Part shown: one piece after another, positions 1,964 through 40,049 of the stretch | Position numbering within the stretch: position 1 is the first letter of the stretch | Layout: every line of letters starts with the position of its first letter | Assembly: GCA_963809895.1 (NCBI GenBank) | Contig: CAWELD010000003.1 | Span: forward strand, 1,888,001-1,952,000 | Direction of reading: 5' to 3' | Length of the DNA stretch: 64,000 bases | Origin: an uncultured Gemmatimonadales bacterium | GTDB taxonomy: Bacteria; Gemmatimonadota; Gemmatimonadetes; Longimicrobiales; Gaopeijiaceae | Position numbers and translations under genes: made by a program | The notes under the pieces: generated by a model | What the model saw: the letters and a program-made list of their open reading frames with translations, nothing else | Told to the model about the DNA's origin: nothing | The model's database searches: none

Positions 1964-3181
1964 CTAATCGGCCGGCGCGACAACTTCAGCTGCGCTCTTC
2001 TTCCTAAAAGAGCCGAAGGAGATGTTATCGAGGAATCCATCGGGGATCGCTTGGACCGGTTCTGGATCGGGCGTCTCTCGCTTTGGGGGGACCAGCGAGG
2101 GCTCTAACGAAACCGTGTCGCCGAAGAACTGCCGTCGGATCTCCAAGCCAAGCACTTCGGCCAAGGCACTCGGTACGGCATTCCCAAGTTGCCGCTGTAT
2201 TGCTGTGATTCCGCCTTGTACTTCAAAACCATCTGGGAAAGTCTGGATACGGCAGAGTTCCCGAGCTGAAAGGCGGCGATTCTCCCAATGGAACGGTCCG
2301 ATCGCGCTGCCGGGCTGCGCCTGAACCGTCCACGAGGGGCGCTTCTTCGCGAGCTTTAGAAGCATGCTCCAATAGCGAGAACGCCACTTGAATATTGGAG
2401 TGCCGCCTCCCCTCTCCGTGTGCCAGAGGTAGTTATTCCCTTCGGGGATCGACGGCAACAAGGGTGCCCACTTCCCGGTCACGGCGAGCGCCTCGGCATT
2501 AGCTGGCCGATCAAGATCCCCTAAGGCATCCCAGGCTGTGCGGTAAGGCTCAAGGTCGAAGACTGAAACCTGCTCCGGGTTCTTCGCCGGATCTGCGAAA
2601 CGTGGCCTCGGAAACTCGAACTCCGCGCCATCCCTTGAGCCGATCAGGAAGACCCTCTCTCGGATTTGGGGAACCCCGAAATCCGCGGCATTCAGCACTT
2701 CGAAGCGTAGTGAGTATCCTGCACCCGTCCGATCGTTGATCTGAGAGAGTGCATCCTTGAGGAAGACCATTCCCTCGTCCTTCCCCTCATACGTGAGTCC
2801 GTAGACGTTCTCAAGAAGAAAGGCCTTCGGAAACGTGTCTTCGAGGACACGCATGTACGCCCCGAGCGTGGAAGCACGAGGGTCGTCGAGCCGCTTCGTA
2901 TCGCCTCGGGCCCAGTATGCTGACTTAGAGAACGGCTGGCATGGCGGACCACCACAAAGAAGGTCGGCCTCTCCGGGCTCCAGCCCGGCGGCCTCTAGGA
3001 TCGCCTCGCTCGGTACGTCGTGGATGTCCCGGTCAATCACTGGCCACTCCCGGTTGTGGCGAAGGGTGCGCACGCAGGTGCTGTCCATTTCGACACAGAC
3101 GCGAGTCTCGAATCCGGCCGCCTCTAGCCCGAGGTCAAGGCCACCGGCACCGGAGAACAGGGAGATTAGCGATCGGGACAT
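1964..3181 (-). CDS. DNA (cytosine-5)-methyltransferase of a type II RM system
   Basis: C5-MTase motifs in order: SLFSGAGG (I), GGPPCQPFS (IV), LENV (VI), QIRERVF (VIII), RRLSARE..RIQTFPD (IX), QLGNAVP (X). Confidence 0.97.
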   Translation of the reverse strand: MSRSLISLFSGAGGLDLGLEAAGFETRVCVEMDSTCVRTLRHNREWPVIDRDIHDVPSEAILEAAGLEPGEADLLCGGPPCQPFSKSAYWARGDTKRLDDPRASTLGAYMRVLEDTFPKAFLLENVYGLTYEGKDEGMVFLKDALSQINDRTGAGYSLRFEVLNAADFGVPQIRERVFLIGSRDGAEFEFPRPRFADPAKNPEQVSVFDLEPYRTAWDALGDLDRPANAEALAVTGKWAPLLPSIPEGNNYLWHTERGGGTPIFKWRSRYWSMLLKLAKKRPSWTVQAQPGSAIGPFHWENRRLSARELCRIQTFPDGFEVQGGITAIQRQLGNAVPSALAEVLGLEIRRQFFGDTVSLEPSLVPPKRETPDPEPVQAIPDGFLDNISFGSFRKKSAAEVVAPAD

Positions 3182-3257
3182 TGCGCAGGGTAGGTTGAGG
3201 CTTGAGCTTCACGGGTACCGTATCATACCACCCATCCACTGTACCCTCAATACAACC

Positions 3258-3482
3258 GTGCACATCCACATTCGACTACGCGAATGCATGGACCGCCACG
3301 AAGCGCGGACCGGCCGGCGAATCAGCTACGGGGATGTGGCTGAAGCAACGGGCCTGAGCCTTGCGACGATTGAATCCATCGGATCACGCGAGCACTACAA
3401 CGCGACCCTCGCGATCGTGGCGAAGCTCTGCCGGGCCCTTTCAGTCGATATCGCAGAGATTCTCGAACTGAGGGACAGCTAA
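3258..3482 (+). CDS. Small Cro/C1-type HTH regulator (74 aa), probable RM controller
   Basis: GTG start at 3258: VHIHIRLRECMDRHEARTGRRISYGDVAEATGLSLATIESIGSREHYNATLAIVAKLCRALSVDIAEILEL. Divergent from the MTase; its stop overlaps the endonuclease stop. Confidence 0.85.
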   Translation: MHIHIRLRECMDRHEARTGRRISYGDVAEATGLSLATIESIGSREHYNATLAIVAKLCRALSVDIAEILELRDS

Positions 3483-4564
3483 TCGCCGACAGCCGTGTCG
3501 ACGATTGCTTTCCAACTCTGCAGACCGACAATTGAGGCCTCGATCTCGAGTAGGCGCTCGTAAATGTCGCGGCCGGCAGACTCCAATACTCGTCTCGGCG
3601 GCCGCCCCGAGTTGAACAAGACGCTGCTCAGCAACTCGAGCCATCCGCAATAGACGGCGAGCGAGATCCCGCGGTCGAACGCTGCGTCCACGAGAGCACC
3701 GAGTTCGAGCCGAGGCTGACCTGTCGCAACCGCAACCATTGCCGCCCAACGCGCCTGGGCCTCGTGGGCCTTCACGAGGAAATGCGAGACGTCGTGTACA
3801 CCGACGACCTTATCTCGGACCTCGTACACGCGCACCACCGAGTAGGGATGCTCGGGATCCAGGACACCTACGTCGCCTGGGAAGCGGCGATCAGGGTCGT
3901 TGATTCGATCGACCAAGACTCGCTCCGGGCCGTAGAGCTGATCAAGGAACCCCGCAGCTACCGCCTGTGCTCGCTTCCCTCCCTCGGAATCCTCGCCTGT
4001 AAACTCCGCGACTATCGCAGCCAGTTCTGACGGGGTCACCCTGATCATCGCGTCGCCGTCTAGCGTCGGGGGTGGCGTACGTGCTCGACCCCGGATGAAT
4101 GCTCGAAGAGCTGCGCGCGCATCGCGTTCATCGCCCGCCTCAAGGAGCTGGATACCCTCCAGCATGATCTTAAATGGAACCTCGGCGTCGCCGCGTAGCT
4201 TCTCCGACGCCTCGTCGAGATCCTTCTTCCCAAAGTAGGGCTGGTTGTTCAGCGGCTCGCGTCCAGTAACGCCCAAGTCGATTGACAAAGCGGGTGCCAT
4301 CGCGGCCAGTACGTGCTGAGCGAGGCTCCGAGCGGAGTAGGCTCCGGGAACGCCAGCCGACACCTTGAGTGTCCGCACGTTGACGCGGGGGTTTGTCGCT
4401 TTGGCGAGGATGGCGGTCCCTAACATCGCTATGTGCGTCTTCGGAGCCCTTTCGCAGGCTCTGGAGAGTCTTGCAACGAGGTCGATCCATACATCCGGAA
4501 TCGGCTCTTCGCTCCGGGCGGCCTCCTTGAGCACCTGGCTAGCTTTCTCGTGATCGATCTTCAT
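3479..4564 (-). CDS. Type II restriction endonuclease, SacI family
   Basis: Start at MKIDHEKA. Motifs THIAMLGTAILAKA, YSARSL, DLGVTGREPLNNQPYF, SEGGKRAQA and INDPDRRFPGDV..YEVRDK (PD-(D/E)xK-like) match SacI-family REases as I recall them. Lies next to a C5-MTase. Confidence 0.8.
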   Translation of the reverse strand: MKIDHEKASQVLKEAARSEEPIPDVWIDLVARLSRACERAPKTHIAMLGTAILAKATNPRVNVRTLKVSAGVPGAYSARSLAQHVLAAMAPALSIDLGVTGREPLNNQPYFGKKDLDEASEKLRGDAEVPFKIMLEGIQLLEAGDERDARAALRAFIRGRARTPPPTLDGDAMIRVTPSELAAIVAEFTGEDSEGGKRAQAVAAGFLDQLYGPERVLVDRINDPDRRFPGDVGVLDPEHPYSVVRVYEVRDKVVGVHDVSHFLVKAHEAQARWAAMVAVATGQPRLELGALVDAAFDRGISLAVYCGWLELLSSVLFNSGRPPRRVLESAGRDIYERLLEIEASIVGLQSWKAIVDTAVGD

Positions 4565-5032
4565 ATGTGGCTGGGTGGTGTCAGACTTCTGTCTCAATCG
4601 CGGCATTGGTTCTGGAGACCGCACCGAGACGAGCTTCCTCGCGGATGAGATCTCGCCGCGCAGCCGAAGGTCGTCTCTACACCTGAATCTCAAAAGGCTT
4701 CAAGGCAAGAGGTCCCCATCTGGAAGACATGGTCTGACCCACCCGCGAGCATGCCGCGTAACGTGAGGGGGCTTCCGAACCGGCCCTCAACCAAACGTTC
4801 GACTCGCAGGTTACGCTGAGTCCCGTCGGCTCCGCCAGGGCCTTCCACATGGTTGTGGGTCGATTCGGACGAAGCGCTGCGCCGGTCACCGCGCGGTGCG
4901 AAGCCGAACGCCTCGAGTCAAGTGAGGCGCGAACCGGGCGTTCAAGCCCAGCCCTCCCGATCATGGAGCCGTGACGAGAATGGGCAAGCCACCGTCGTTG
5001 GCCGGCCGATGCGTCTCCGGCACGCCGGGCAA

Positions 5033-5639
5033 TCACACAAGCCACACAGTGACGCCGAATGCACCGAGGACGATCGCTCCGAGGATAAGCCATGGACGCT
5101 GTGCTGCCGCAGACCAACGGAGGCGGGTGAGGAGCTTGCCCCCGAAACTGACCTTGAAGTCGTCAGGCTGTCGCACAGCGAACATCCCGTAGTCGACCGG
5201 CTCGTGGTTCTCAGGAAATCGCTTCAATATGTCGTTGTAGTCCTCAATGAACCCCACCACATCGAGCGCTTCGGCCTCAAGGCTGGCAAGGTCGTAGAGC
5301 CGTCCGAGCCTCGATCGCCGCTCGATGATGTTGGTCGGCCCGAAGCTCATACGACTTCCCATACTCTAGAACTGACACCACAAGAATGGCGATCGCCCCG
5401 ACGGCTGCAAGAAAATCGACCTGCCCGGAGCTTCCAAACGACCCACCGACCAGACCGAAGGCGTTTGCCAAGGACAGGCCCACCAGTCCGAGCGAAGCGA
5501 AAGTTACCGCCCAACGGGACGCCACGCCGGCACGCGCCAGACGGCGGTACGCTTCAAACCGGGCCCCCTTGGTTGTCCAGACCTTTCTCAGTTGCCGGGC
5601 CCTTGAGCCCTCGTCCTTCAGGTTCTTTGGCCGGATCAC
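5033..5639 (-). CDS. SLATT-domain (SLATT_5-like) transmembrane effector; one frameshift at ~5310
   Basis: ORFs 5277..5639 and 5033..5362 join if one G is removed (ATC GAG [G]CTC GGA = IELG). Reads KVWTTKGARFEAYRRL, two hydrophobic helices, RADQHHRAAIEL, ENHEPVDY, then a C-terminal TM helix. This is the RT-associated SLATT pattern. Confidence 0.8.
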
Positions 5640-5658
5640 GTGACCCCCACCGAGCGTT

Positions 5659-5802
5659 GGGATCCACTGCTACATGATTCTGATGGTCGCTTCGCACTCA
5701 CCGTCAGCACGAAGGGTAGAAGCTCCTACGGAGACTCTGATCACAGCCGCCCTACTCCATGGCGTAGGGGTTCGCCCGTCCCGGGCGAGAGCAGTGGATC
5801 CC
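5659..5802 (-). ncRNA. Candidate structured ncRNA of the RT-SLATT system (144 nt)
   Basis: Perfect 13-bp inverted repeat GGGATCCACTGCT (5659-5671) / AGCAGTGGATCCC (5790-5802) encloses hairpins at 5772-5788, 5750-5769, 5713-5738 and 5680-5707. It fills the gap between the RT stop (5809) and the SLATT start (5639). Strand is inferred from the operon. Confidence 0.7.
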
Positions 5803-5808
5803 TAAGGG

Positions 5809-7206
5809 TTAGGAGACGAATGCGATGTCCGCTTCAAGATCCGCAATCTGCTGGTTCCGGTAACGTTCGAACAAGTCATTCACCTGTTCCTCACTCACGA
5901 AGTCGTCAGGTCCGATTCGACCTCTCTCAACGAGGAAATCCAGCCTCTGAGCCATCGTCTCAAAGACATCGTAGTTGTGAACGTAGGCACCGGAAGGCCG
6001 ATGGCGAACCTCATGGAATGCGCGGGCCAGACGCTTGACGTCACCTAGTGACTTTGTAGGTAGGCCCGCGAGCCGCGGGAGCATCGAACGTACGGCCGCG
6101 TCCATCCGAAAGAGCAAGGTCTCGTCAGTCATCGCGGAGAAGTAGAACATCCAGCCATACCTTCGCGACTCGCTGATCGCGCCGGTGATTCGCTCGTTCA
6201 ACTCATCGATGAAGACCTGCCTGGCCAGGTCCGGGGTCATCCAGTCGTGCTCTCGGATCAATCGCTGGCGGTCGCGGCGATACCGCGTTGCCCGTGCTGC
6301 GATCTGCTCGAGGAAGCGATCCACGGAGCTGTCACGCACGGTTACCAAATCGCCGGTGAAGACGTAGCCAAGGAAGCCGATAGCCCATTGAGCTCAAATC
6401 GGCCACCCTTGGCCGTTTGGGGCTCCAGCGGATGCACACGGAGGCCGCGATCCTCCAGCTCACCAGAGACGAACTCATAGACCGTCTCCACCGCATCCGC
6501 GCCCACGATCAGCAGCAGATCATCGACGAAGCGGAAGTAGGCTACCGCGTCTTCCCGGATGCGTTCATCCAAGTCCCCAAGGTAAATGTCGGCGAGGACG
6601 TTGGAGATGCGACAGGCCTTGGGGCACTCCCGCGGTCCGGCGGGTACGCGGAACCTGAGACGTCTACTCCCTTCGCGGCACCGCCGGGTTTCGAATCGCC
6701 CTGTAGACCAACTAGACTCAAAGTCCGGCAGGCGCCGCCGCACAAGGGGCATCAACTTCTCATGAGACACGGAATCGTAGAACTCCTTTATGTCCAAACG
6801 AAGGCATGCATGGGTGCCAGGCTCAGCCTCCGTGACGGCGGTGAGGGCCTCCCGAACCATTGTGTTGGGAAGGACTCGACCAACATGTCCGGAGAACTCC
6901 TCATGTAGGCGTTCCTTAGTTGGAGGAGTGCCAGGCGATCCCTCGCCGTTGGGATGCAGATCTTCGCGCGGCGGGCGAGCTTGGTCCCTTGTTTCGCAAC
7001 ACCTGGGCGTAGTTCCCGAACCGATAGGTGCCGTCTTGGACCTTCTGAGAGACCGTTGCTGCCTCCTCCTCCAGACGATCATCTAAGGCGCTCGGAGCAA
7101 CCCGATCCATACCTCTGGTTTCGTCGAGTCTGAGGCGGTCTCTGTATAGACCAACCAGAGCCTCTAGCGACCAAGGATCCGCCACCATCCCTCCTCGCTC
7201 GAACAT
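5809..7206 (-). CDS. Defence-associated reverse transcriptase (UG/DRT class, ~460 aa), split by about 5-6 single-base indels
   Basis: Stitching frames gives TRGMDRV, YRFGNYAQVLRNKG..KICIPTARDRL, RLDIKEFYDSVSHEKL, GVPQGLS/ISNVLADIYL, YFRFVDDLL, FLGYVF, then a C-terminal extension LNERITG...YGWMFYFS. No group II intron maturase/HNH tail and no retron NAxxH/VTG motifs. Start is ATG 7206 or 7188. Confidence 0.9.
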
Positions 7207-7213
7207 GCCCCTC

Positions 7214-8043
7214 TCATCTCTCTCGTGCCTCATGGGTCTCAAGCAGGAACGTGGCGAGCGTCGTCGCCGCCCCCACGGCAAGACGTGCGTGCCGGGGATG
7301 AACACCTTGCGCCCTCCCGTGCTTTCCATGGCCCGTGCCGTACAGATTTCGAAGCTCAGCAAGGCCGTTAACTAGCGTCGCGAGGTTGCTGAGGAGCCGT
7401 CTGATGGACTCGGCACCCTTGGCGGCATCGTCGATGTCGGCCGGAAGAAGCGTCAGGCCTTTCTCGTCTCCTTCACCAGTCGCGGAACGTCCCACTTAGT
7501 ATCGATCGATACTCCACGCTCGGTGAGGATTGTCTTGCAGGTCGTCTCCACTAGTTCCTTCGCGGTACCGATGGCGAGACTAGGGTCCTGCTCTAGGGCA
7601 CCGCGCATGCGGTCGATCTGCCTCCGGAGTTCCGGGGCGTCCATAGACACGAGCGCGGTTCGTAGAGAGCTGTGTCCGGGAAGGCGTAGGCGCCCATCAA
7701 CCTCCTTCAAACCATCACGCGCCAACCACCGCCGCAACACGGCGGCTGTCTCTTCAGCCCAGTCGGCGTTGTGTCCGCCCCCGGATGCCTCAATGTCGAG
7801 ATTCACGAGGACAGCCTCGTAGACGCGAAGCACTCGGTTCGCCTGGACCGGATCGGACCAGTCGATGCCGTGATAGTACTGTTCGACCAAAGACCGTCGC
7901 TGTCCTCCCACAGGCGGATCGAAAGACAGGTCAGCCTCAAATCCCTCCGCACGAAAGGCGTCGTCAATCTTTGCCAACGTCGTCGAGACGAAGTACTCGC
8001 GGAATTCCTGCCGCGTCTTGATGCTAACGAGGTCTCGCGTCAT
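7214..8043 (-). CDS. Abortive-infection family protein (AbiJ-like N-terminus + Abi_C/HEPN-like C-terminus); one frameshift at ~7456
   Basis: ORFs 7453..8043 and 7214..7495 join by restoring one C (GCC [C]TG). Motifs AIGTAKELVETTCKTIL and ELRNLYGTGHG...HARLAVGAA are typical of Abi_C domains. Confidence 0.85.
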
Positions 8044-8615
8044 GCCAGTACCTAGTGCCTATCGACGTTGCTTAACACGCATGCAATCGCTCCCATGTCG
8101 CGCTTCACTTGACTGCCCATATCCGAGTCCTGCTGTGGCTTCATGGCCTGAGTGTACGCCTGGCACTGGCACCGACCGGCCACGCCCTCCAGAATGGCGC
8201 GTGAAAGCTCCGTCCGCAACTTATGCGATGGGATGATGCAGCCGCGCTGCACACGCACCACATCGGAGACTTGGCAACCGCTCCGCAATCAACGCCCAGC
8301 GATCCCCTGAGTGGACCAGCAGCCCAACTGGCCGGACGAACCCGCCCGGAAAAGGCCCCCCAAGTGCCGGGATGATCGTACCGCCCACCCCGCCCATCCC
8401 GGTGGTCAAACCGTGCAGGCAACCCCCCCGTCCGACCCCCCGCCCAGGGGCCTCTCCTGCGGGGAATCCGTCGCGGCGCAGCCCGCGAACGCAGCGGGGG
8501 CTCGCCTTCCGCCGCGCAGCGACGGCTAGCGAGCCCCCGAATTTCCCAAACCCCAGTTGGGCGAGCGTGCCCCGCAGGGGAGGCCCCTGAGCGGGGGGTC
8601 AGGCCAACAAAGCCA

Positions 8616-9818
8616 CTACTGCACCGTATTGATCATGTCGAAGATCGGCAGGTACATCGCCACGATCATCCCGCCCACGATCACCCCCAGGAACACGATC
8701 ATGATCGGCTCCATGGCCGACAACATGGCCGCCACCGCCGCATCCACCTCTTCGTCGTAGAAGTCGGCGATCTTCTCGAGCATCTCGTCGAGCCCGCCCG
8801 TCTGCTCACCCACGTTGATCATCTGGACCACCATCGGCGGGAACACCCCCGACTCCTTGAGCGGCCCCGCGATCGTCTCACCACCGGCAATGCTGGCCCG
8901 GGATCCCATCACCGCATCGTGGATCACCCGGTTCCCCGCCGTCTTGGCCGTGATCTCCAGTCCTTCCAGGATCGACACGCCCGACGACACCAGCGTGCCC
9001 AGCGTGCGCGTGAAGCGGGCCACGGCCGCCTTGCGCTGCAGGTCCCCGATCAGCGGCATCGCCAGCAGCATCCGGTCGACCGTCAAGCGTCCGCCCTCCG
9101 TTCGGTAGAACTGCCGGATCGCGAAGGCCGTCACCATCACCCCTCCCAGCACCGCCCACCAGTACCCCGTCAGGAAGGCCGACAGCCCGATCACGATCCG
9201 GGTCGGCAGCGGCAGCGGCACGCCCACAGAGCTGAACATCTCCTGGAAGGTCGGGATCACGAAGATCAGCAGGATCGTCACCGCGGAGGCGGCCACGGTC
9301 AGGATCACCGCCGGGTAGATCATGGCGCCTTTGATCTTCCGGACCAGGGCGTCGTTCTTCTCCAGGAAGGTGGCCAGGCGGAGAAGGATCGTGTCCAGGA
9401 TACCGCCGGCTTCACCCGCGGCCACCATGTTCACGAACAGGTCCGTGAAGACCCGCGGGTGGCGGCTCAGGGCATCGGCCAGGGTGTGGCCCGACTCCAC
9501 GTCGTAGAGCACGTCCTGGATGATCTTGCGGAGCGACTTGTTCTCCGTCTGCTCGGCCAGGATGTCCAGGGACTGCACCAGCGGGAGCCCCGAGTTGATC
9601 ATCGTGGCGAACTGACGCGTGAAGATCACGATGTCGCGCGTCTTGACGCCCGTTCCGATCTGGAAGCTGATCTCGCGTGACTTTTCGCGGACCGATACCG
9701 GGATCAGCTTCTGACGATGCAGGAAAGAAAGGACCTCTTCCTTGGTCGGAAGCTCGATCTCGCCGGACTGGATGTCCCCGCCGGTGGCGGGACGGGCGCT
9801 GTAGGCGAACGTTGGCAT
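8616..9818 (-). CDS. pilC: Type IV pilus inner-membrane platform protein PilC (T2SSF family)
   Basis: FTRQFATMINSGLPL, AGEAGGILD, GEQTGGLDEML, AMYLPIF; follows pilB-pilT. Confidence 0.95.
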   Translation of the reverse strand: MPTFAYSARPATGGDIQSGEIELPTKEEVLSFLHRQKLIPVSVREKSREISFQIGTGVKTRDIVIFTRQFATMINSGLPLVQSLDILAEQTENKSLRKIIQDVLYDVESGHTLADALSRHPRVFTDLFVNMVAAGEAGGILDTILLRLATFLEKNDALVRKIKGAMIYPAVILTVAASAVTILLIFVIPTFQEMFSSVGVPLPLPTRIVIGLSAFLTGYWWAVLGGVMVTAFAIRQFYRTEGGRLTVDRMLLAMPLIGDLQRKAAVARFTRTLGTLVSSGVSILEGLEITAKTAGNRVIHDAVMGSRASIAGGETIAGPLKESGVFPPMVVQMINVGEQTGGLDEMLEKIADFYDEEVDAAVAAMLSAMEPIMIVFLGVIVGGMIVAMYLPIFDMINTVQ

Positions 9819-9826
9819 GGCCTACC

Positions 9827-10970
9827 TCAACCTAAACTGGAGGGCATGGTCTCGCCGACGGACCGCAGGAGCTCCTGCGGATCGGCCGAGCGCTTGAGTG
9901 CTTCCTCCAGCGTGATCTCGTTCTTGAGATACAGCATCTGGAGGGAGTCGTTCATCGTCTGCATGCCGTGCTTCTTGCCGGCCTGCATGAGCGAATAGAT
10001 CTGGTGGATCTTCTCGTCGCGGATCACCGCGCGAATGGCCGGCGTGCACATCATCACCTCGGAGGCGGCGACCCGGCCCCGGCCCTTGGCCCTCGGGATC
10101 AGCGTCTGGGTCACCACGCCCTCGAGCACGAACGAGAGCTGGGCCCGCACCTGCGGCTGCTGGTGCGAGGGGAAAGCGTCGATGATCCGGTTCACGGATT
10201 CCGCGGCGGAGTTGGTGTGCAGCGTGGCCAGCACCAGGTGGCCCGTCTCGGCGATCGTGAGCGCGGCGCTGATGGTCTCCAGGTCGCGCATCTCGCCGAT
10301 CAGGATCACGTCCGGGTCCTGCCGGAGCGCGTACTTGAGCGCCGCGGCGAAGGACTTGGTGTCGGCACCCACCTCGCGCTGGTTCACCACCGAGTTCTGG
10401 TGGCGGTGGATGAACTCGATCGGGTCCTCGATGGTGATGATGTGCGACTTCCGCTCCTTGTTGATCTTGTCCAGCATCGCCGCCAGCGTGGTCGACTTAC
10501 CCGAGCCCGTGGGGCCCGTCACCAGCACCAGGCCCCGGGGCCGCTCGGCCAGCTTGTTGATGATCGGGGGCAGCCCCAGCTTCTCCACACTCTGGATGTC
10601 GTAGGGGATCTGCCGGATGGCCAGCGCCACGCAGCCCCGCTGCTTGAAGGCGTTGCCGCGGAAGCGGGACAGGTTCTGCACCCCGAAGGAGAAGTCCAGC
10701 TCGTCTTCGGTCTCGAAGCGCTTCTTCTGATTCTCGGTGAGGATCGAGTAGGTCAGGTTCAGCGTGTCCTTCGGGCGCCAGGACCTTCGGGTACTGGGAG
10801 TTCACCAGGTCGCCGTCCACACGCACCTTGGGACGCTCGCCCACGGTCAGGTGCAGGTCCGACGCGCCCCGGCTGATCATCTCCTGCAAGAGGTTGCGGA
10901 GACTCAGCTCGGGGATGCGGGCTCCCTCCTCCTTCACGTTCTGCGCGCTGGTACTGGCTTGTTCGCTCAT
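9827..10970 (-). CDS. pilT: Type IV pilus retraction ATPase PilT; one frameshift at ~10772
   Basis: N-terminal ASDLHLTVG (ORF 10497..10970) joins ORF 9827..10681 with GPTGSGKSTT, TIEDPIE, LRQDPDVILIGEMRD, TGHLVLATLHT and PAIRAVIRD. Confidence 0.93.
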
Positions 10971-11046
10971 GCCAGATCTCGGGCTCGGGCGTCTTGTTCG
11001 AGGACCCGGACGCTCCGGGCCACGTGGGGAGGATGGTACGGCATCG

Positions 11047-12756
11047 TCAATCCGACGTCTCCTTGACGATCTCTTCCAGCGTGGTGATCCCCCGCTCCAC
11101 CTTCACGAGACCGTCCATGCGGAGCGTGAGCATGCCCTGACGGAGCGCGATCTCCCGGAGGTCGTCGGTGCTCCGCTCTTCCATGATGCCCCGGCGCAGC
11201 TCCGGCGACATGGCCATCACCTCGTACAGGCCCTGACGGCCCCGGTAGCCGGTGCCGTCACACTGCTCGCAGCCCGTGCCCTTGTAGAAGGTCGTCTTGT
11301 TCGCCCAGTCCATGGGCAGCTTGGCCGCGTGCAGGTACTCCTCTTCGTAGGTCGTCTCGGCCTTGCAGTTGGCGCAGATGCTCCGCACCAGCCGCTGGGC
11401 CGTCACCAGGTTGAGGGCCGAGGCCACGTTGAAGGGCTCCATGCCCATGTCGATGAGGCGGGTGACCGTCGAGGCGCAGTCGTTGGTGTGCAGGGTGGAC
11501 AGCACCAGGTGTCCGGTGAGGGCGGCCTTGAGCGCGATGCTCCCCGTCTCCAGGTCGCGGATCTCACCCACCATGATGATGTTGGGATCCTGACGCAGGA
11601 AGGCGCGCAGCGCCGCGGCGAAGCTCATGCCGATCTCGGTGCGCACCAGCACCTGGTTGATGCCGTGGATGTTGTACTCCACCGGGTCCTCGGCCGTCAT
11701 GATGTTGACGGACTCGGTGTTCACCCGCGACAGCGCCGAGTACAGGGTGGTGGTCTTACCCGAGCCGGTGGGGCCCGTGACCAGCACCATGCCGTAGGGC
11801 CGCGAGATGGCCCACATGAAGTCCTGCTCGGCCTTGGGCTCGAACCCGAACTTGGTCAGGTCGAAGGTCAGGTTGCCCTTGTCCAGGATGCGCAGCACGA
11901 TCTTCTCGCCGAAGATCACCGGCAGCGTGGACACGCGGAAGTCCACCACCTTGTTGCGGATCCTGAGCTTGATGCGGCCGTCCTGCGGCACCCGCCGCTC
12001 GGCGATGTTCAGGTCCGACAGGATCTTGATGCGCGAGGTGAGCGCCGCCTTCATCTTGAAGGGCGGCTTCATGACCTCCTTGAGCGTGCCGTCGATGCGG
12101 TAGCGCACCCGCACCTCGCGCTCGTAGGGCTCGATGTGCACGTCGCTGGCGCCTCGCATGACCGCGTCGGTGAGGAGCCCGTTGATGAACTTCACCACCG
12201 GGGCCTGGTTCACCTCCGCCTGCAACGCGGACAGCGAGACGTCCTCCTCCTCGTCCTCGACGAACTCGACGTCCTCCTCGATCAGGTCCTCGAGGATGTC
12301 CGCCATGCGCTGATCGGCGCTCTCGTAGTACTTCTCGATCTGATGTCGGAGCGTGTACTCGCCCACCACCACCGGCTCGATGTCCAGCCGCGTGATGAAC
12401 TTCAGGTCGTCGATGGCCCCCATGTCGGTGGGGTTGACCATGGCGACCGTGAGCGTGCGTCCCATGCGCCGCAGCGGGAGCACCAGGTGCTTGAACGCCA
12501 CCTCGCCGGGCACCAGGCGGAGGATCTTGGGATCCACCTCCACCTTGTTGAGATCCACGGCGGGCACCCGGTACTGCCGGGCCAGGACTCGGGTCAGCGC
12601 GTCTTCGGCGACGTAGCCGAGACGCACCAACGCAAAACCCAGCCGCGTGCCCTCCTTGCGGGCCTCGCGGAATCCCTCCTGAAGCTGATCGTCCGATACC
12701 AGTCCCTCGCGGACGATCAGATCGCCTAGTCGATCCTGGGCGACGTTGGTGGCCAT
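11047..12756 (-). CDS. pilB: Type IV pilus assembly ATPase PilB
   Basis: Start MATNVAQDRLG; ASDVHIEP, ERRVPQDGR, GPTGSGKTTT, LRQDPNIIMVGEIRD and a tetracysteine motif. Confidence 0.95.
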   Translation of the reverse strand: MATNVAQDRLGDLIVREGLVSDDQLQEGFREARKEGTRLGFALVRLGYVAEDALTRVLARQYRVPAVDLNKVEVDPKILRLVPGEVAFKHLVLPLRRMGRTLTVAMVNPTDMGAIDDLKFITRLDIEPVVVGEYTLRHQIEKYYESADQRMADILEDLIEEDVEFVEDEEEDVSLSALQAEVNQAPVVKFINGLLTDAVMRGASDVHIEPYEREVRVRYRIDGTLKEVMKPPFKMKAALTSRIKILSDLNIAERRVPQDGRIKLRIRNKVVDFRVSTLPVIFGEKIVLRILDKGNLTFDLTKFGFEPKAEQDFMWAISRPYGMVLVTGPTGSGKTTTLYSALSRVNTESVNIMTAEDPVEYNIHGINQVLVRTEIGMSFAAALRAFLRQDPNIIMVGEIRDLETGSIALKAALTGHLVLSTLHTNDCASTVTRLIDMGMEPFNVASALNLVTAQRLVRSICANCKAETTYEEEYLHAAKLPMDWANKTTFYKGTGCEQCDGTGYRGRQGLYEVMAMSPELRRGIMEERSTDDLREIALRQGMLTLRMDGLVKVERGITTLEEIVKETSD

Positions 12757-12956
12757 ACCGTGCGGGTTTCCTCTGGTGGGAAGGGGGGTGCCCGGTTGTG
12801 ATGGAAGCGACAAAGGCCCACACCCTGCCCGTGCCGGCGCCCTTCGGGAACGGCCCGCCGACTCGAACAGGGAAACGGATGTAGTCATTTCAAACGTAGG
12901 CCGGCCCGGCGCCACGGGTCAAGCATCGTAAAACGGGCCTGGCAAGCCGGCCCCGG

Positions 12957-13646
12957 TCATCCTCCTCCGAGGCGCACGAGCGGCTTCAAGCGCGCCAGCA
13001 CGGCGGGCCCGATCCCCCGCACGCGCAGCAGGTCGTCGGGGGTGCGGAAAGGCCCGTCCCGCTGCCGCGACTCCAGGATCCGGCGGGCCAGCGCCGGCCC
13101 GATTCCCGGGAGCGCCTCCAACGCCCCGGCGTCGGCGTGGTTCACGTCCACGGCGGCGGGCGCCGCCGCCTCGTCCGCCGCCGGTCCCACCAGCGGCTCG
13201 TAGCCCCGGGCGCCGTCGTCGGCGTCCCGCACCAGCGCCACCGAGGCCGGCGGGCGCGAGAAGTCCAGCCGGTCCCGGAGCCGCGTCACCGTGGCCGGCC
13301 CGATGCCCCGCACCCGGGTCAGGTCGTCGGGCCCCCCGAATCCCCCCTCTCGGGTGCGGAAGGCGACGATGGCCCGCGCAACCGACGGCCCCACGCCGGG
13401 GAGCCGCTGCAGCTCGGGCTCGTCGGCCCGGTTGGGGTCGATGCGCTCGCCCGGCGCCAGGGGGGTGGCCGCCCGCGCCTCGGCGTCTGCCGCCGCCCGC
13501 GCCGCCGAGTCCAGCGCCGGCAGCGCCGAGCGGGTGCCGGGCAGTTCGGGCGCAGGGTGGACCCGCTCCACGCCCCAGCGCACGAGCCCGGCCACCAGGA
13601 GCGTCAGCGCGGCCTTCACCAGGGTCCCGCTCTCGCTCTGCGTCAC
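12957..13646 (-). CDS. comEA: ComEA-family DNA-binding protein with two HhH domains
   Basis: N-terminal TM helix; two repeats IDPNRADEPELQRLPGVGP..A..IV..R and VDVNHADAGALEALPGIGP...VRGIGP. Confidence 0.88.
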   Translation of the reverse strand: MTQSESGTLVKAALTLLVAGLVRWGVERVHPAPELPGTRSALPALDSAARAAADAEARAATPLAPGERIDPNRADEPELQRLPGVGPSVARAIVAFRTREGGFGGPDDLTRVRGIGPATVTRLRDRLDFSRPPASVALVRDADDGARGYEPLVGPAADEAAAPAAVDVNHADAGALEALPGIGPALARRILESRQRDGPFRTPDDLLRVRGIGPAVLARLKPLVRLGGG

Positions 13647-13734
13647 CCCTCACGGTGGCCGCGCCCCGCGGGCGATGGCATGGCCCGTTGCGCCCCTCCG
13701 CCCGCCGTCGCCCGCGCGCCCCCGCGTCAGCGCG

Positions 13735-16700
13735 TCAGCGCGCGCCGGGAAGCCCGGGCGCACCGGACAGCCCCGGCAGCCCCATGGCGCCGGCCTCGAG
13801 CAGGAACTGTCCGAAGACCGAGAGCTGGAACTGGGTGGAGCCCCGGCGCTGGCCCACGTACGACTGGCGGTCGGTGTAGCTGGCCTGGATGCCCACCTCG
13901 AGGCTCCGCACCTGGGAGTCCAGGGTCATGGAGAGCGCGCGGTTGAGCTGGTCCACGAAGGCCACGCACTCGGGCCGGCCCACGGGCACGCGGCACTCCC
14001 GCTCGGCGACGTAGCTGGCCAGGAGCGACAAGCGCACGGGCCGGCTCACGCGAGCGGCCAGCCCGAAGGGCGGCAGGAAGGACGAGGTGACGGACAGGCG
14101 GTGGGTGGTGCGCTCACGCTCGGTGTCGCCGGTGGGGTCCTCGCCGGTACCGGTCTCGAACCCGGCGCGGTACGACGTCACCAGCCCGCCGGCCCAGGCC
14201 AGCGTCAGGTCCAGCGGCACGCTGCGGTCGTCGAGCAGGCGCCGCTGCGCCGCCTGGCCGTAGACCAGTTGCCGCCGCGCCCGCCGGATCCCGGCCGACA
14301 ACGAGATGCGCTCCAGGGCGCCCCCGAGTACGTCGCCGGCGGGCAGACCGTCGACGCTGGCCCGCAGGTCCGGCCAGGTCTCGGTGCGCACGGTGCGGTC
14401 CGCGCGCGTGTCCAGCGTGGCCACCTCGGTGCGGGCGTAGGTGGCGTCCAGCCCCAGGTGGTCGGCCAGCACGCCCCAGCTCACCTGATGGGCGCTCCGG
14501 TCGGTGAGGGTGGCGGCGGTGTCGCCGTCCAGCACCCGGTAGCCCCCCAGCCCGGTCCAGCCGAACTGGTAGCCCAGCCCCGGATCCACGGGGTCGCGGT
14601 TGAAGCGCGAGAACAGGCCTCCCTGCCAGGTCCAGGACACGGGGCGCAGGTGCCGGAGCACGGCGCCCAGGAATCCCCCGTCACCCGCCTCCGCCCCACC
14701 CAGCGCCTGGGCCAGCGCGTCGGGCTGGAAGCGCGACGAAGGTTCGCAGCGAGCGCTCGCCGCTGGCGTTCCGCTGCAGAAAGACCAGGCTGTCCAGCGG
14801 CTGGGGGATGACGCCCACGAAGCCCGGGTTGCGGTCGCTGTCGTAGCGGGTGGTGAAGGTGAGGTCGTGTCGGAGCCAGGGGACCACGCGCGGGCGGTAG
14901 GACACGGTGGTACGCAGGCTGCGGTTGGTCTCCCAGCCCAGGTCCACCCCGGCCACCTCGGCCCGCTGGTCCTCCAGGAGCTGCTGCACGTCGGGGTCGG
15001 CCACCACGTCTTCCGGGCGCAGCAGATCGCGGGTGGACAGGAAGGTGAGGTCGGCGGTCAGCGATCCCAGGGGCCGGAAGGTGACCTCCGCCGCCGACTC
15101 CAGCGCCTCGCGGGGCGCCTCGGTGGGGGTGACCAGCGAATCCTCCGGCGTCTCGATGATGCGCTGGTAGCGGAAGATGCGGTTGTCCTGGCGCGAGAAC
15201 GACGTGCCCACGATGAAGCGCTCCGGCGACCAGCGCACCCTGGAATCCAGGACCTTGTCCTCCAGGGGCTCGGGCAGGAGCAGGCGCACGAGCCCCTCCA
15301 TGAAGCCGGGGATGGGATCGAACTCCCGGGGCTCCAGACGCCGGTCGTAGCCCAGGCGCAGGTCCATGCCGCTGGCCTCGAGGCGCGAGGTCACCGTCGA
15401 CGAGCGCGCCTTGTACCAGGCCACGTTGCCCTCGAGCCCGTCCATGACCGCCCCCAGCAGGGGGTTCGCCATGGGGGTGGTCTTGCGGAAGCCCAGCGAC
15501 ACGCGGGTGCGCCGGGAGCCGGTGTCGCGCAGGTCACCCAGGCGGTCGGCCCGCACGTCGGAGTCGGTGAGGAAGGTGGGGTCCACGGTGGCGCGGTCCA
15601 CGGTGAGCGACAGCGGCAGCTCCACCCCCCACTCCGCCGGGGCCAGCCGCTCCAGCCGCGCCCGCGAGGTGAAGGTGAGGCGGCGGTCGGTCTGGTAGGT
15701 GGCCCCCTCGCTCGAGCTGGTGGAAGAAGGCGCCCCTGGAGGACAGGGTGAGCTGGTTCTGCAGCACGTCGCCGGCGTTGAGCGAGGCGTTCACCACCCC
15801 CGCCAGCCCCGCGTCGTGCACCCCCCGGGACAGGCGCAGCTCGTCGATCCACACCTCGCCGTCGAAGGGGGTCGGGCCCCGGTTCCACACGCCCACGGCC
15901 AACTCGCGCACGTTGGCCAGGTCCGGCGCCCGCCCCCGGTCCCGGAGCACCACCGCGTAGGTGGAGTCCTGCGCCCACAGGGTGAGGGGCGGATCACCGG
16001 GTCCCCGGGGATTCAGGTTCAGGTCCTCCTCGGCGCGCCGGCGGAGCTCCTGCAGCACGCCGAAGTCCACCACCACCTCGGGCAGCCAGTCCGAGGGGAC
16101 CACGCCGCCGGGGTCCGAGGGGCGCCGGAGCGTGGTGCGGTACAGATAGAAGTTCTCCGGGTCGGTGCCGATCTTGAGGAAGAACGACACCGGGCGCTCC
16201 TCGCCCCAGTCGCCGGAGCGGGCCACCACCCACAGACGGGCCTCGCGGTAGGAGAGGAAGTCCCGGGGCCGCTGCGGAAAGCGGCTGTAGACCTCGGCCC
16301 GCTCGCCGGGCTGGATGTCCTCGACCTTGAGGCTCAGCGACTTCTCGTTGAACTCCACCCCGGTGCCGCCCACCGCCGAGGTGGGGTCGGCGAGCTGCTC
16401 GAGCACGCCGGGCGGCGAGGCGTAGGCGTCGCCCTCGGTGACCCGGCTCACCGGACCCACCTCGACCCGGCCGCCGGCGGCCAGGGTGTCGCCGATGATG
16501 CCGGTGAGCACGCCCTCGATGCCGCGCTTGATCCAGCGCGAGCCCACGATGCGCATGCGGGCCAGGGTGATGTCGGTGCGGTTGCCGCCGGTGACGGTGA
16601 TGCGCAGGTGGCGCACGGCCCGCAGATCCGCCTCGGTGACGGGCCCGTTCACCTGCGTGGCCAGCGTGGAGCGGATGGGGATGCGGTAGAGGCGGAACTG

Positions 16701-19700
16701 GGTGCCGGTCTCGGAGCGGCTGCGGGCCAGGAAGGGCGACGAGCCGCTCAGGTGGATCAGGTAGCGGAGCGAGCGCTCGGCGGTGTCCAGGTTGCCGTCG
16801 CCGTCCAGGTCCTCGGTGTCGTTGCGGCCGTTGCCCCGGGTGCACACGGCCCGGGGGTCGCCCAGCCGGTAGATGCGGCCGGGCTCGGCCTGGCACGACT
16901 CGCCCCACACGCCCAGCGCGTCGGCGGCGTTGCCCCACACCTCGCCCCGGGCCGGGTCCGCCTCCTGATCCAGCAGGCCCAGCCCCCACGGCACTCCCGA
17001 CTCCTTCACCCCCGAGGTGCGCCCCTCCTCGTCGACGAACATGGCGTCTTCGCTCACCGTGCCCAGGTCCACCACCAGATCCGTGCCCTCGCCCCCGGCC
17101 ACGTAGAACTCGATGAACTCGCTCTTGGTCAGGTCGAGGCCCGTGGTGCTCAGGGTGGTGGTGATGGAGGACCAGGCGCGGCCGCCGAAGCCGGGATCGA
17201 AGGTCAGGCGCAGCCCCGGCTCCCGGGTGCGGGTCCCCGCCACCCGGATCTGCTGATCGATCTCCTCGCGGGGCAGGAATCCCTCGTGGATCCCCACGCT
17301 GTCGCCGGCCTGCGACTCCTCGATCCAGGTGTGCTGCCACACCAGGTCGGCGAGGGTGGAGGCGTCCAGCGGCGAAGGCAGCGAGCCTTCGGCGCCCTCC
17401 GCCGAGGTGGGCGCGCTGCCCCGGTTCCAGTCGTAGGCCAGCAGCGAGAGGCCGCGCTCGTCGCCGGCGTCGAAGTCGTCCAGGAAGACGTCACCCCGGG
17501 TGTTGGGATTGGGAAGCGACAGCGCCACCTCGCCGTCCATGGCGAAGGAGGAGCGCTCGCCGACCCGCAGCCCAGGGATCTCCGACAGGACCTGATCCAG
17601 CCAGGTGACGTCGCGGCGCACGCGGCCGTTGAGCCCACCCAGGAGCGCGGCGCCGGGCTCCAGCCCCAGCACCGGGCGCTTCACCAGCGTCTGCTCGGAG
17701 CGGTAGAGGGTGAGCAGGTCCAGGCTGCCCCGGTCCGAGCCGCCCAGGTGCGCGTTGAAGCCGAACACCGAGGTGGGTGCCTGGCGGAAGACCTGCTTCT
17801 GCTCCCAGGTGGCCCGCACCGGCGCGTCGGGGTTGGCGGCGAACAGCGCCTCGGGATCCAGGAGCGTGACCTGGCCCACGTCGTAGTCGATCTCGTAGTC
17901 CACGCCGCGCACCAGCACGCGGTCGCCCAGGTAGACGCGCTCGCTGCCGTCGACGATGCCCAGCGCCCCCAGCGAGAAGGACGAGATGACGCCCTCACTG
18001 CGCACGCGGTAGGGGATGGTCAGGCGGAAGCGTCCCCCGCTGTCCCGCTCGTAGGGGTCCTCGCTCTCGTAGATGCGCCGGTTGGCGTCGTCGGCCAGCA
18101 GCTCGGCCGCCTCGGCGGCGGTGAGCCCCACCCCCGGGTTGGCCGGCGGGTCGGCGAAGGGGTGCAGCGTGGGGAACACCACGAAGGTGCCCTGCACGCC
18201 GCCGGCGTCCTGGAAGAGGTCCTGGGCCGGCGAGTACACGAAGCTCGGGTCCACCTGGTCCACGGGGGATTCCTGGTCCAGGCCGAAGAGCTGCAGCCAG
18301 GTGACGTCGCGGCCGTCGGTGGCCCGCTTGAAGGTGCGGCCCGCGCTGGGCTCGCCCAGCGAGATGGTGACCTCCACCGAGCTGCGCTCCACGTCGGGCG
18401 CCGCGCTCACCCGGTAGATCTGGTGCATCTCCTGCTCCCAGGTGGGCCGGCCCGGCTGGTGGTTGGCGCCCGAAGCCTTGAGCAGGCGGAGCTGGGGGCG
18501 CCCCCCGGCGGTATAGACCCGCTCGGGGTTGTAGGTGCCCACGGTGTCGCCCACCGCGGTCACGTAGGTCACCGCCAGCATCTCGTCGCGAGACAGGGGA
18601 TTCCTGAGCGCGATCCACAGCCCCGAGGGGTGCACGTAGTAGTCCTGACCCGGCACCAGGTAGCGGAACCAGCCCGACTCCACCACGCGCCCGCCGTCGC
18701 CCTCGGCCACGGCGTCGGCCTGGATGTAGCCCTCCACCTGCTGGCGGGCCGCCGGGTCGTTCTCGTAGCGGTAGAGCTGGACCGGCTCGATGCCCGGCAC
18801 CACCTGGGGCGGCGCCGCGCCGGCGTTCAGGTCCAGCACGTCGACGTGGGGATAGTCGGTGAGGAGGCGGGGGTCCACGAGGAAGAAGAACTGGCCCCGG
18901 TCGTAGTCGGCGTCGTCCAGGACCAGCGTGTCCTCCTGCACGAAGCGACGCTGGTTGCCCACGCCGGTGAGGCGGAACTCGCGCGACGACAGATCGCCCT
19001 TCTGCTCGGCCCACACGCTGCGGAAGTCCAGCGGGCCGAGCTGCCCCTCGGCCTGGAAGCCGAAGTTGCCGGCGGGGATGCCCTGGGTCAGGTAGCGGGA
19101 GCGGGGCAGCCGGAAGGTGACGTCACCCACCTCGAAGCGCTTGAGGATGTCGTCTTCCTGTCCCTCGTAGACGATGGAGATGGTGTTGGTGGCGCCGAAC
19201 TCACGGAGCTGATCGTAGTCCACGTCGACCTTCACGCGGTCGGCCACCGTGCCCTGGATCTGCACCGCCAGGTTGACGTCGGGCTGGAGCTGGGGCAGGA
19301 GCGTGGGATTGCAGCTCTCCTGGAACTGGTCCACGCAGGGCCGGTAGCGGGTCCAGTCGCCACCGAGCTCGGTGCGCCCCCGCACCCGGAGGCCCGAGCT
19401 CGGCGTAGCGCGACACCAGGCCCGACAGCTCCTCGCTGCCCACCGCCGCCGGCGGCGGCTCGCCGGCTCCCGGCCCCGCCGTGTCCGGCGGCAGGAAGGC
19501 CCGCGTCGGCGGGGGCGCGCCCGCCCGGGCCACGCGGGCGGCGATGAGCCCCGTCACGATGGCGTCGTCGAACGCCGACCTTCCCCCCGCAATCGCCAGA
19601 CGCACCGGAGGCGCCGTGGGCCGGCGCAGCCAGGGCAGGCGGTCGGCGGCGCGGGGCACCAGGTCCTGGAACGAGGGGGCCTCCACCACCCGGGGGCTCA

Positions 19701-36018: not shown

Positions 36019-40049
<4,031 letters not shown>

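Follow-up and report, generated by a model that had tools for sequence, protein, structure and literature searches.

The RNAs of DRT10 (UG17) systems, which defend bacteria against phages, are described, with RIP-seq, mutagenesis and cryo-EM, in four preprints. These RNAs measure about 130-185 nt and have a basal stem, 4-5 hairpins and two loops, and the RT ends in a priming Ser or Tyr that follows a helix. Tang 2025 (PMC12632851) reports an RNA of 137 nt built from a central stem plus four hairpins, in which a loop of A-B-A′ layout templates protein-primed tandem repeats. Structures with 2:1 RT:RNA stoichiometry and spacing rules are given by Ramirez 2026 (10.64898/2026.06.29.735271) and Chen 2026 (10.64898/2026.10.08.757509), the latter also presenting the cryo-EM of the H120 DRT10. 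The E. coli H120 locus is assigned by Sanchez-Nieto 2026 (10.64898/2026.04.29.721553) to subtype UG17-B, which is described there as having the RT-SLATT gene order, the two genes being separated by ~200 bp that contain the RNA. In the published text that we consulted, the RNA is placed upstream of SLATT for every subtype.

Here, we analyze an element between an RT gene and a SLATT gene in the window, by which we mean the whole 64-kb stretch of DNA under study. A preliminary description had interpreted the element as a structured ncRNA that goes with the RT and SLATT genes, and not as a terminator, and had named no family; the conserved, covarying arrangement that we find is that of the published DRT10 RNA. 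We consider it nearly certain that the element is a DRT10 (UG17) RNA encoded on the minus strand, and very likely that the locus as a whole is best explained as a DRT10 module in RT - ncRNA - SLATT order with this element as its RNA. The kind of element is already known, and the window provides a new, divergent, deep-branching example of it.

Results

The DRT10 genes and their surroundings

The module and the gene next to it comprise the following features:

5033 to 5639, minus strand: SLATT_5 membrane effector, with one frameshift near 5306-5327
5659 to 5802, minus strand: DRT10 (UG17) ncRNA, 144 nt, with ends predicted from the closing stem
5809 to 7206, minus strand: UG17/DRT10 reverse transcriptase, with 8 frameshifts, FVDD motif and terminal Ser; start codon approximate
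7214 to 8043, minus strand: Abi_C (AbiJ-like) gene, with one frameshift near 7454; outside DRT10

The RT is split over three ORFs, and RT_UG17 is the best PADLOC model for all three (E 2.7e-38, 6.5e-25 and 2.3e-11); its catalytic YxDD-type motif reads FVDD. The SLATT gene is split over two ORFs, both of which match RTasSLATT and Pfam SLATT_5 (PF18160; E 3.5e-19 and 5.5e-7). Because a UG17 RT, a SLATT gene and an ncRNA are present together, the locus is a DRT10. The terminal serine of the RT aligns with S456 of Eco3 and Y467 of H120. Relative to Eco3, R371 is kept, K385 is replaced by R and Y388 by H; relative to H120, H313 is replaced by R. A PDB sequence search with the C-terminal RT piece returned no match at E 0.01.

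The window shows the UG17-B architecture, with RT and SLATT in this order and 169 nt between them. We also built a quick tree from 63 RT rows. In this tree, a 99% branch parts 18 SLATT-first RTs from the RT-first ones, and the window lies on the RT-first side, where it forms one clade (100%) with its closest RTs, P0001-P0003. This clade stands outside a 31-row, 99% clade that contains the H120-type rows, amid unresolved branches. The window therefore fits UG17-B by architecture, and by phylogeny it is a candidate member. P0001-P0003 are intact and share about 60-77% identity with the window RT (76, 72 and 60%). Their DNA was not found in metagenome, viral and genome scans; a metagenome scan seeded with P0001 gave one fragment, which lacked the intergenic region, and a second viral scan gave nothing above 36% identity. 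Among other genomes, the system was seen in 0 of 313 from the same family, 1 of 400 from the order, 1 of 400 from the class and 2 of 400 from the phylum.

Several neighboring features may be recorded here. The Abi_C gene belongs to a 276-aa family with 74-79% identity to its relatives, and 8 nt separate its end from the probable start of the RT. At 1964-4693, a C5 cytosine methylase and a SacI-family nuclease make up a type II restriction-modification pair; the short divergent ORF region that parts the two may be a controller gene. The module and this pair lie in a stretch of ~60% GC, compared with 65-71% in the flanks. A 17-nt inverted pair (4916-4932 and 8098-8114; 16/17 matching) brackets Abi_C, RT, ncRNA and SLATT and has no other copy in the genome at up to 2 mismatches; its two members might mark the limits of a mobile cassette or serve as regulator boxes, and we saw no transposase between them. 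A 167-nt element (8434-8600), located between the island and the pilus genes, has a 31-bp closing stem and inner hairpins (-125 kcal/mol) and might be either a miniature mobile element or a further structured RNA. From 8616 to 19385 lie genes of a type IV pilus, judged by their translations, and a long outer-membrane gene, and this stretch has frame switches near 10771, 14730 and 15711.

Position, strand and conservation of the RNA

The perfect 13-bp inverted repeat that pairs 5790-5802 with 5659-5671 forms the closing stem of the element, and it is the sole perfect 13-bp inverted repeat spanning ~90-210 nt in the whole window. The preliminary description had given this stem, the 144-nt length and the same coordinates, all of which we re-found in the sequence, and its spacing also holds: 6 nt separate the RT stop (5809) from the RNA and 19 nt separate the RNA from the SLATT GTG (5639), so that the RNA sits inside the 169-nt gap. 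The minus strand reaches a minimum free energy of -66 kcal/mol (z -3.32), which none of 200 shuffles equaled. For the plus strand, the z value is similar (-3.67) and 2 of 200 shuffles matched the fold, and folding alone thus carries no strand information. An Rfam search of window positions 4000-9000 found no family at the element and one unrelated match (E 4.5). At the element itself, we found no terminator-like site, no U-tract following it, as had been noted before, and no sigma-70 promoter-like site.

Comparison with relatives proved more informative about the strand. From 65 viral and 34 genomic loci, we examined the 300 nt past the RT stop in 36 RT-first loci and kept 34, dropping the duplicate L005 and the frameshifted L103. 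A closing stem follows the RT stop on the sense strand in all 34 kept loci (its boundaries were set by hand in 7 of them), and the elements measure 133-187 nt. A first covariance model, R1, was built from 33 relatives, with the window and the near-copy L091 left out; its top-ranked hit of 210 (E up to 10) was 5660-5803 on the minus strand of the window (16.8 bits, E 0.01), and a search of both strands of the whole window gave no plus-strand hit at the element. A second model, R2, combined 34 related loci, again excluding the window, with a covariation-tested structure. It placed 5659-5804 on the minus strand first in 64 kb over both strands, with 23.4 bits (E 3e-6) against 13.7 for the next hit. 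Because these window-free models place the element on the minus strand only, we assign it to that strand; the preliminary description had read the same strand with some doubt, and the R1 and R2 ranks support its choice. A count of G-U versus A-C appositions (129 versus 37) also favors the minus strand, with a bias from an alignment fitted on that strand.

The element is the top hit of R2, a model of homologous RT-SLATT spacers, and the relatives show covariation, with two-sided changes in 32 of 33 pairs over the 34 relatives. For the four named helices in these aligned relatives, 86.3% of 1061 cells can pair, compared with 70.0% after shuffling and 41-50% after sliding; relatedness and alignment fitting inflate all of these figures, the count of two-sided changes included. 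The window is a distant member, scoring 23 bits under R2 against 70 for L110, although the L110 score holds by construction, its RNA being identical to that of training row L008. Applied to 56 loci, R1 detected L105 as a new locus in addition to its 33 training rows. Neither model found the RNA in SLATT-first loci (0 of 17, plus L040) or SLATT-first sources (0 of 8), in agreement with the subtype-specific models of Sanchez-Nieto 2026 (10.64898/2026.04.29.721553). A whole-genome search with R2, in which 150 of 385 candidates were scored, returned nothing.

Two features of the relatives concern the spacing after the RT. In L084 (3398-3541), ~140 extra nt separate the RT stop from the RNA. Conversely, the basal stem starts in or overlaps the RT stop codon in 10 of the 34 RT-first relatives (L006, L080, L085, L087, L088, L094, L096, L098, L102 and L106), which leaves no room for an intergenic promoter, so that transcription there would start inside the RT gene or the RNA would be cut from the mRNA.

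Secondary structure of the RNA

From 5′ to 3′ on the minus strand, the RNA is divided as follows:

5790 to 5802, minus strand: SL1 5′ arm of the 13-bp basal stem (pair probability 0.88-1.0)
5772 to 5788, minus strand: SL2, 7-bp hairpin (from the fold)
5748 to 5770, minus strand: SL3, anchor hairpin of loop A (model alignment and fold)
5736 to 5746, minus strand: loop A, with a conserved GU-purine-x-UC motif; predicted to give a short abortive product
5723 to 5733, minus strand: SL4, compact 4-bp core (fold)
5688 to 5715, minus strand: SL5, template-boundary hairpin (fold and alignment), superseding a hairpin drawn earlier
5672 to 5686, minus strand: loop B, predicted template loop, 15 nt (fold; spacing rules from solved systems)
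5659 to 5671, minus strand: SL1 3′ arm (sequence and fold)

The preliminary description had drawn four hairpins within the closing stem. The first two are borne out, with pair probabilities of 0.87-1.0. Only the 4-bp core of the third stands (0.74-0.77), its outer pairs being weak (0.43-0.57). The fourth, pairing 5707-5700 with 5687-5680, has a pair probability of 0.01 and gives way to a 9-bp stem between 5714-5706 and 5698-5690, which has a probability of 0.9 and a fold energy of -64.4 kcal/mol, compared with -60.6 kcal/mol for the structure with the earlier hairpin. The model from relatives likewise aligns the 9-bp stem, SL5. With SL5 as the correct last hairpin, the single-stranded 3′ loop comprises 15 nt rather than 8, and it was thus the mis-drawn hairpin that had hidden the template. 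In the ensemble, the bases of loop B are unpaired with probabilities of 0.4-0.9.

The bases of the two hairpins that border the loops differ. An A-G pair closes SL3, whereas at the base of SL5 an A replaces the G and an extra C is present. In 25 of 34 relatives the SL5 base is A-G, and the window departs from this consensus. In known systems, the base pair of the boundary hairpin is a non-canonical purine pair, G-G in Eco3, and Ramirez 2026 (10.64898/2026.06.29.735271) reports little dependence on the identity of this pair.

Template loop and predicted product

Loop B can be divided, again 5′ to 3′, into these segments:

5686-5685, minus strand: 2-nt linker (fold)
5684-5681, minus strand: A, AUCA (sequence)
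5680-5679, minus strand: B, GA (sequence)
5678-5675, minus strand: A′, AUCA (sequence)
5674-5672, minus strand: 3-nt linker (fold)

The A-B-A′ element (AUCA-GA-AUCA) starts 2 nt after the SL5 base, which is the spacing seen in solved DRT10 complexes, and counting 7 nt back from SL1, as in H120 and Eco3, leads to the last base of B as the predicted initiation site. A 4-nt repeat as in the window has a shuffle P of 0.015 at that position and of 0.07 anywhere in the loop. We thinned the near-copies among the 34 rows to 19 lineages; 15 of these have a repeat of at least 2 nt beginning 2 nt past the SL5 base (8.9 expected), and 7 have one at 3 nt (3.0 expected). Without regard to position, an A-B-A′ layout occurs in 27 of 34 loops against 20.8 expected, so easily is it found by chance, and in loop A as a control it occurs in 5 against 8.3 expected.

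These findings make it reasonably likely, by analogy with the characterized systems, that the locus would direct a protein-primed product (TCTGAT)n with an exact 6-nt repeat. One RNA would bind two RT molecules, as in characterized relatives. The RT on loop B would prime on its own C-terminal serine and copy AUCAGA, halting two bases before SL5; after this first pass, yielding TCTGAT, the 3′ end would slip back and re-pair with the second AUCA, and repeated slippage would generate a long protein-linked single-stranded (TCTGAT)n in the manner of telomerase. The RT on loop A would instead yield a short abortive product, to judge from Ramirez 2026 (10.64898/2026.06.29.735271). A build-up of product DNA during infection would then trigger the SLATT membrane protein. 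In the genome, we found no tandem copies of two or more TCTGAT units.

The two loops also share sequence. The hexamer AUCAGA is common to loop A (5746-5736) and loop B (5684-5679), and the UGAU of loop A is complementary to both A elements, a pattern that may reflect exchange between the pseudo-symmetric halves of the RNA or loop-loop pairing.

Frameshifts across the locus

The RT carries 8 single-base frameshifts between 6382 and 6975, 4 of them insertions and 4 deletions, on which three relatives agree. With one frameshift each in SLATT and Abi_C, 10 fall in three adjacent genes, while rpoB and rpoC have none; the preliminary description makes no mention of the breaks in RT and SLATT. The RT value of 8 in 1.37 kb compares with a rough background of 0.09-0.15 per kb, derived from a frame-switch HMM that called 66 switches in 450 kb and 37 in 400 kb; the HMM called none of the frameshifts of the island, and this background is accordingly a rough floor. 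At the RT indel rate, an indel would be expected with a chance of 57% for the RNA and 8% for loop B. As a separate observation, ARAGORN reports a tRNA with an unreadable two-letter anticodon at 36928-37022, possibly another assembly indel.

Discussion

Our findings favor a model where the element is the RNA of a DRT10 module, and other accounts of its structure fare less well. A retron would explain the locus by taking the 13-bp arms as a1/a2 of an msr-msd from which the RT makes branched msDNA, and the layout is indeed retron-like, in that a long inverted repeat closes the element and an RT and a membrane effector lie next to it. Against this, the middle RT piece scores E 3.7e-6 with RT_III-A compared with 6.5e-25 with RT_UG17, the C-terminal piece matches RT_UG17 only (both among the best 25 of 63 models), and the RNA aligns to DRT10 RNAs, with no Rfam family at the element; we therefore regard a retron as very improbable. 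We see just as little prospect for a terminator, a processing signal or a chance cluster of GC-rich hairpins: such structures are easily had in a GC-rich genome where both strands fold well, but the element lacks a U-tract and a terminator hit, and it shows covariation in relatives, conserved single-stranded motifs and the top rank in a window-free model. Within the DRT10 reading, the discarded fourth hairpin might be a real alternative fold that hides the template as an on/off switch, or the repeat might be read in another register. In favor of a switch, 5687-5680 can pair with the SL5 apex at 7 of 8 positions (shuffle P 0.04), and loop B is partly closed in the ensemble. However, the hairpin pairs with a probability of 0.01, costs 3.8 kcal/mol and would break an SL5 anchor that is kept in relatives, and linkers of 2, 3 or 4 nt all yield one 6-nt unit. 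We consider these variants improbable.

Two further possibilities accept the DRT10 identity and concern the history of the locus. The RT, SLATT and Abi genes may have decayed recently, leaving the RNA as the relic of a dead locus. The 10 frameshifts (8, 1 and 1) in three neighboring genes suggest this, as do the adjacent methylase and SacI-family nuclease ORFs, which are unbroken by inspection (405 and 404 aa), like rpoB and rpoC, and the absence of the system from 313 other genomes of the family, which would fit a recent and dispensable acquisition. On the other hand, the aligned RT path of 455 codons contains no stop codon, 3 of 53 invariant RT columns differ where intact relatives show 0-5, and all 35 bp of SL1, SL2, SL3 and SL5 are unbroken. 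Four insertions and four deletions within 600 nt look more like consensus noise, since pseudogenes show a deletion bias. It takes a ratio of about 10 substitutions per indel for decay to be disfavored (P 0.10 and 0.03); at 3 to 1, it is not. We lean toward a locally poor consensus rather than recent decay as the source of the frameshifts; the chance that the locus is intact in the living cell seems to us a little better than even, and a dead locus is a substantial though lesser possibility. The other proposal is that the template loop of this DRT10 RNA has been flipped, by a micro-inversion or by capture of the system's own cDNA in place of the template. Read forwards, loop B matches the loops of relatives less well than shuffles do (mean longest match 3.05; sum 61 versus 72 for shuffles), whereas its reverse complement behaves like a typical member (mean 4.65; sum 93), and 17 of 20 relatives match better forwards. 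The predicted first strand would thus be complementary to the motif that most relatives would make, with opposite polarity. Since an inverted A-B-A′ is still an A-B-A′, the enzyme would go on working after such a flip, its product now being complementary to the usual repeat of the family. The reverse-complement match has a P of 0.001 against random loops of equal repeat layout, but the comparison is post hoc and the loops are not independent; moreover, both loop ends match L006 forwards, with 7 nt at the SL5 base, and the palindrome in loop A holds the same hexamer and is a possible source. In the DRT10 literature that we searched, we found no report of a naturally inverted template. A flip is unlikely, although if it were true it would let one ask, in a natural setting, whether the sequence or strand of the product matters for SLATT activation, and it would point to a route by which DRT10 templates diversify.

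A DRT10 RNA is of a kind that is known and structurally solved, and the element by itself opens no new biology. What the window adds is a deep-branching, Ser-ended, RT-first DRT10 with a concrete (TCTGAT)n prediction. If the product were confirmed, the template rules would extend beyond the enterobacterial models, with a bearing on what SLATT senses.

Comparison with known systems

The closest parallel is the E. coli H120 DRT10. For comparison we used L110, an E. coli RT-SLATT locus that matches 20/20 RT residues and 11/11 RNA nucleotides cited for H120. L110 and the window align in one model, with G5747 on the H120-type G65 and A5687 on G125. Both systems have the RT-SLATT order, an RT of about 469 aa and an RNA of about 145 nt with five stems and two loops, a 2-nt gap from the SL5 base to the repeat and a predicted initiation site 7 nt before SL1. 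They differ in that only 71 of 190 residues of the C-terminal RT piece are identical, in the terminal residue (Ser in the window, Tyr467 in H120), in the SL5 base (A rather than G125) and in the repeat, the window having a 4-nt A/A′ and a 6-nt unit whereas H120 has a 2-nt A/A′ and an inferred 5-nt unit. In addition, the window RNA starts 7 nt after the RT stop rather than about 19, and the window genes are frameshifted.

With Eco3DRT10, represented among our loci by L013, whose template and residue numbering are those of Eco3 and in which all five cited residues are present, the window shares five stems, a template loop between the last hairpin and SL1, a 4-nt A/A′, a 2-nt 5′ linker, a Ser priming residue and the R371 anchor. 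In contrast, Eco3DRT10 has the ncRNA-SLATT-RT order, a 9-nt repeat and a 4-nt 3′ linker where the window has 3 nt, and it is undetected by R1 and R2. Part of the Eco3 repeat is complementary to the first strand predicted for the window. The DRT10 relative L105 (1111-3489) has a third gene order, SLATT - RT - ncRNA: the RT stop is where its RNA begins, with no ORF after it on the same strand, and upstream of SLATT the models give no hit; its loop B has a 6-nt A/A′ and an 8-nt unit. The three DRT10 gene orders are circular permutations of each other.

DRT9 (UG28) likewise combines a Class 2 UG RT with a similar RNA fold and protein priming, according to Tang 2025 (PMC12632851). Its template is poly-U and its product poly-dA, whereas the 144-nt window RNA has no run of three U and the RT scores as UG17, and we rejected a DRT9/UG28 identity for the locus. 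Finally, the same source supports a likeness to telomerase RNA, which also joins a template and an alignment segment with a boundary hairpin and repeat addition. The window system would be protein-primed, bacterial and anti-phage, and we compare it with telomerase RNA as a functional analogue.
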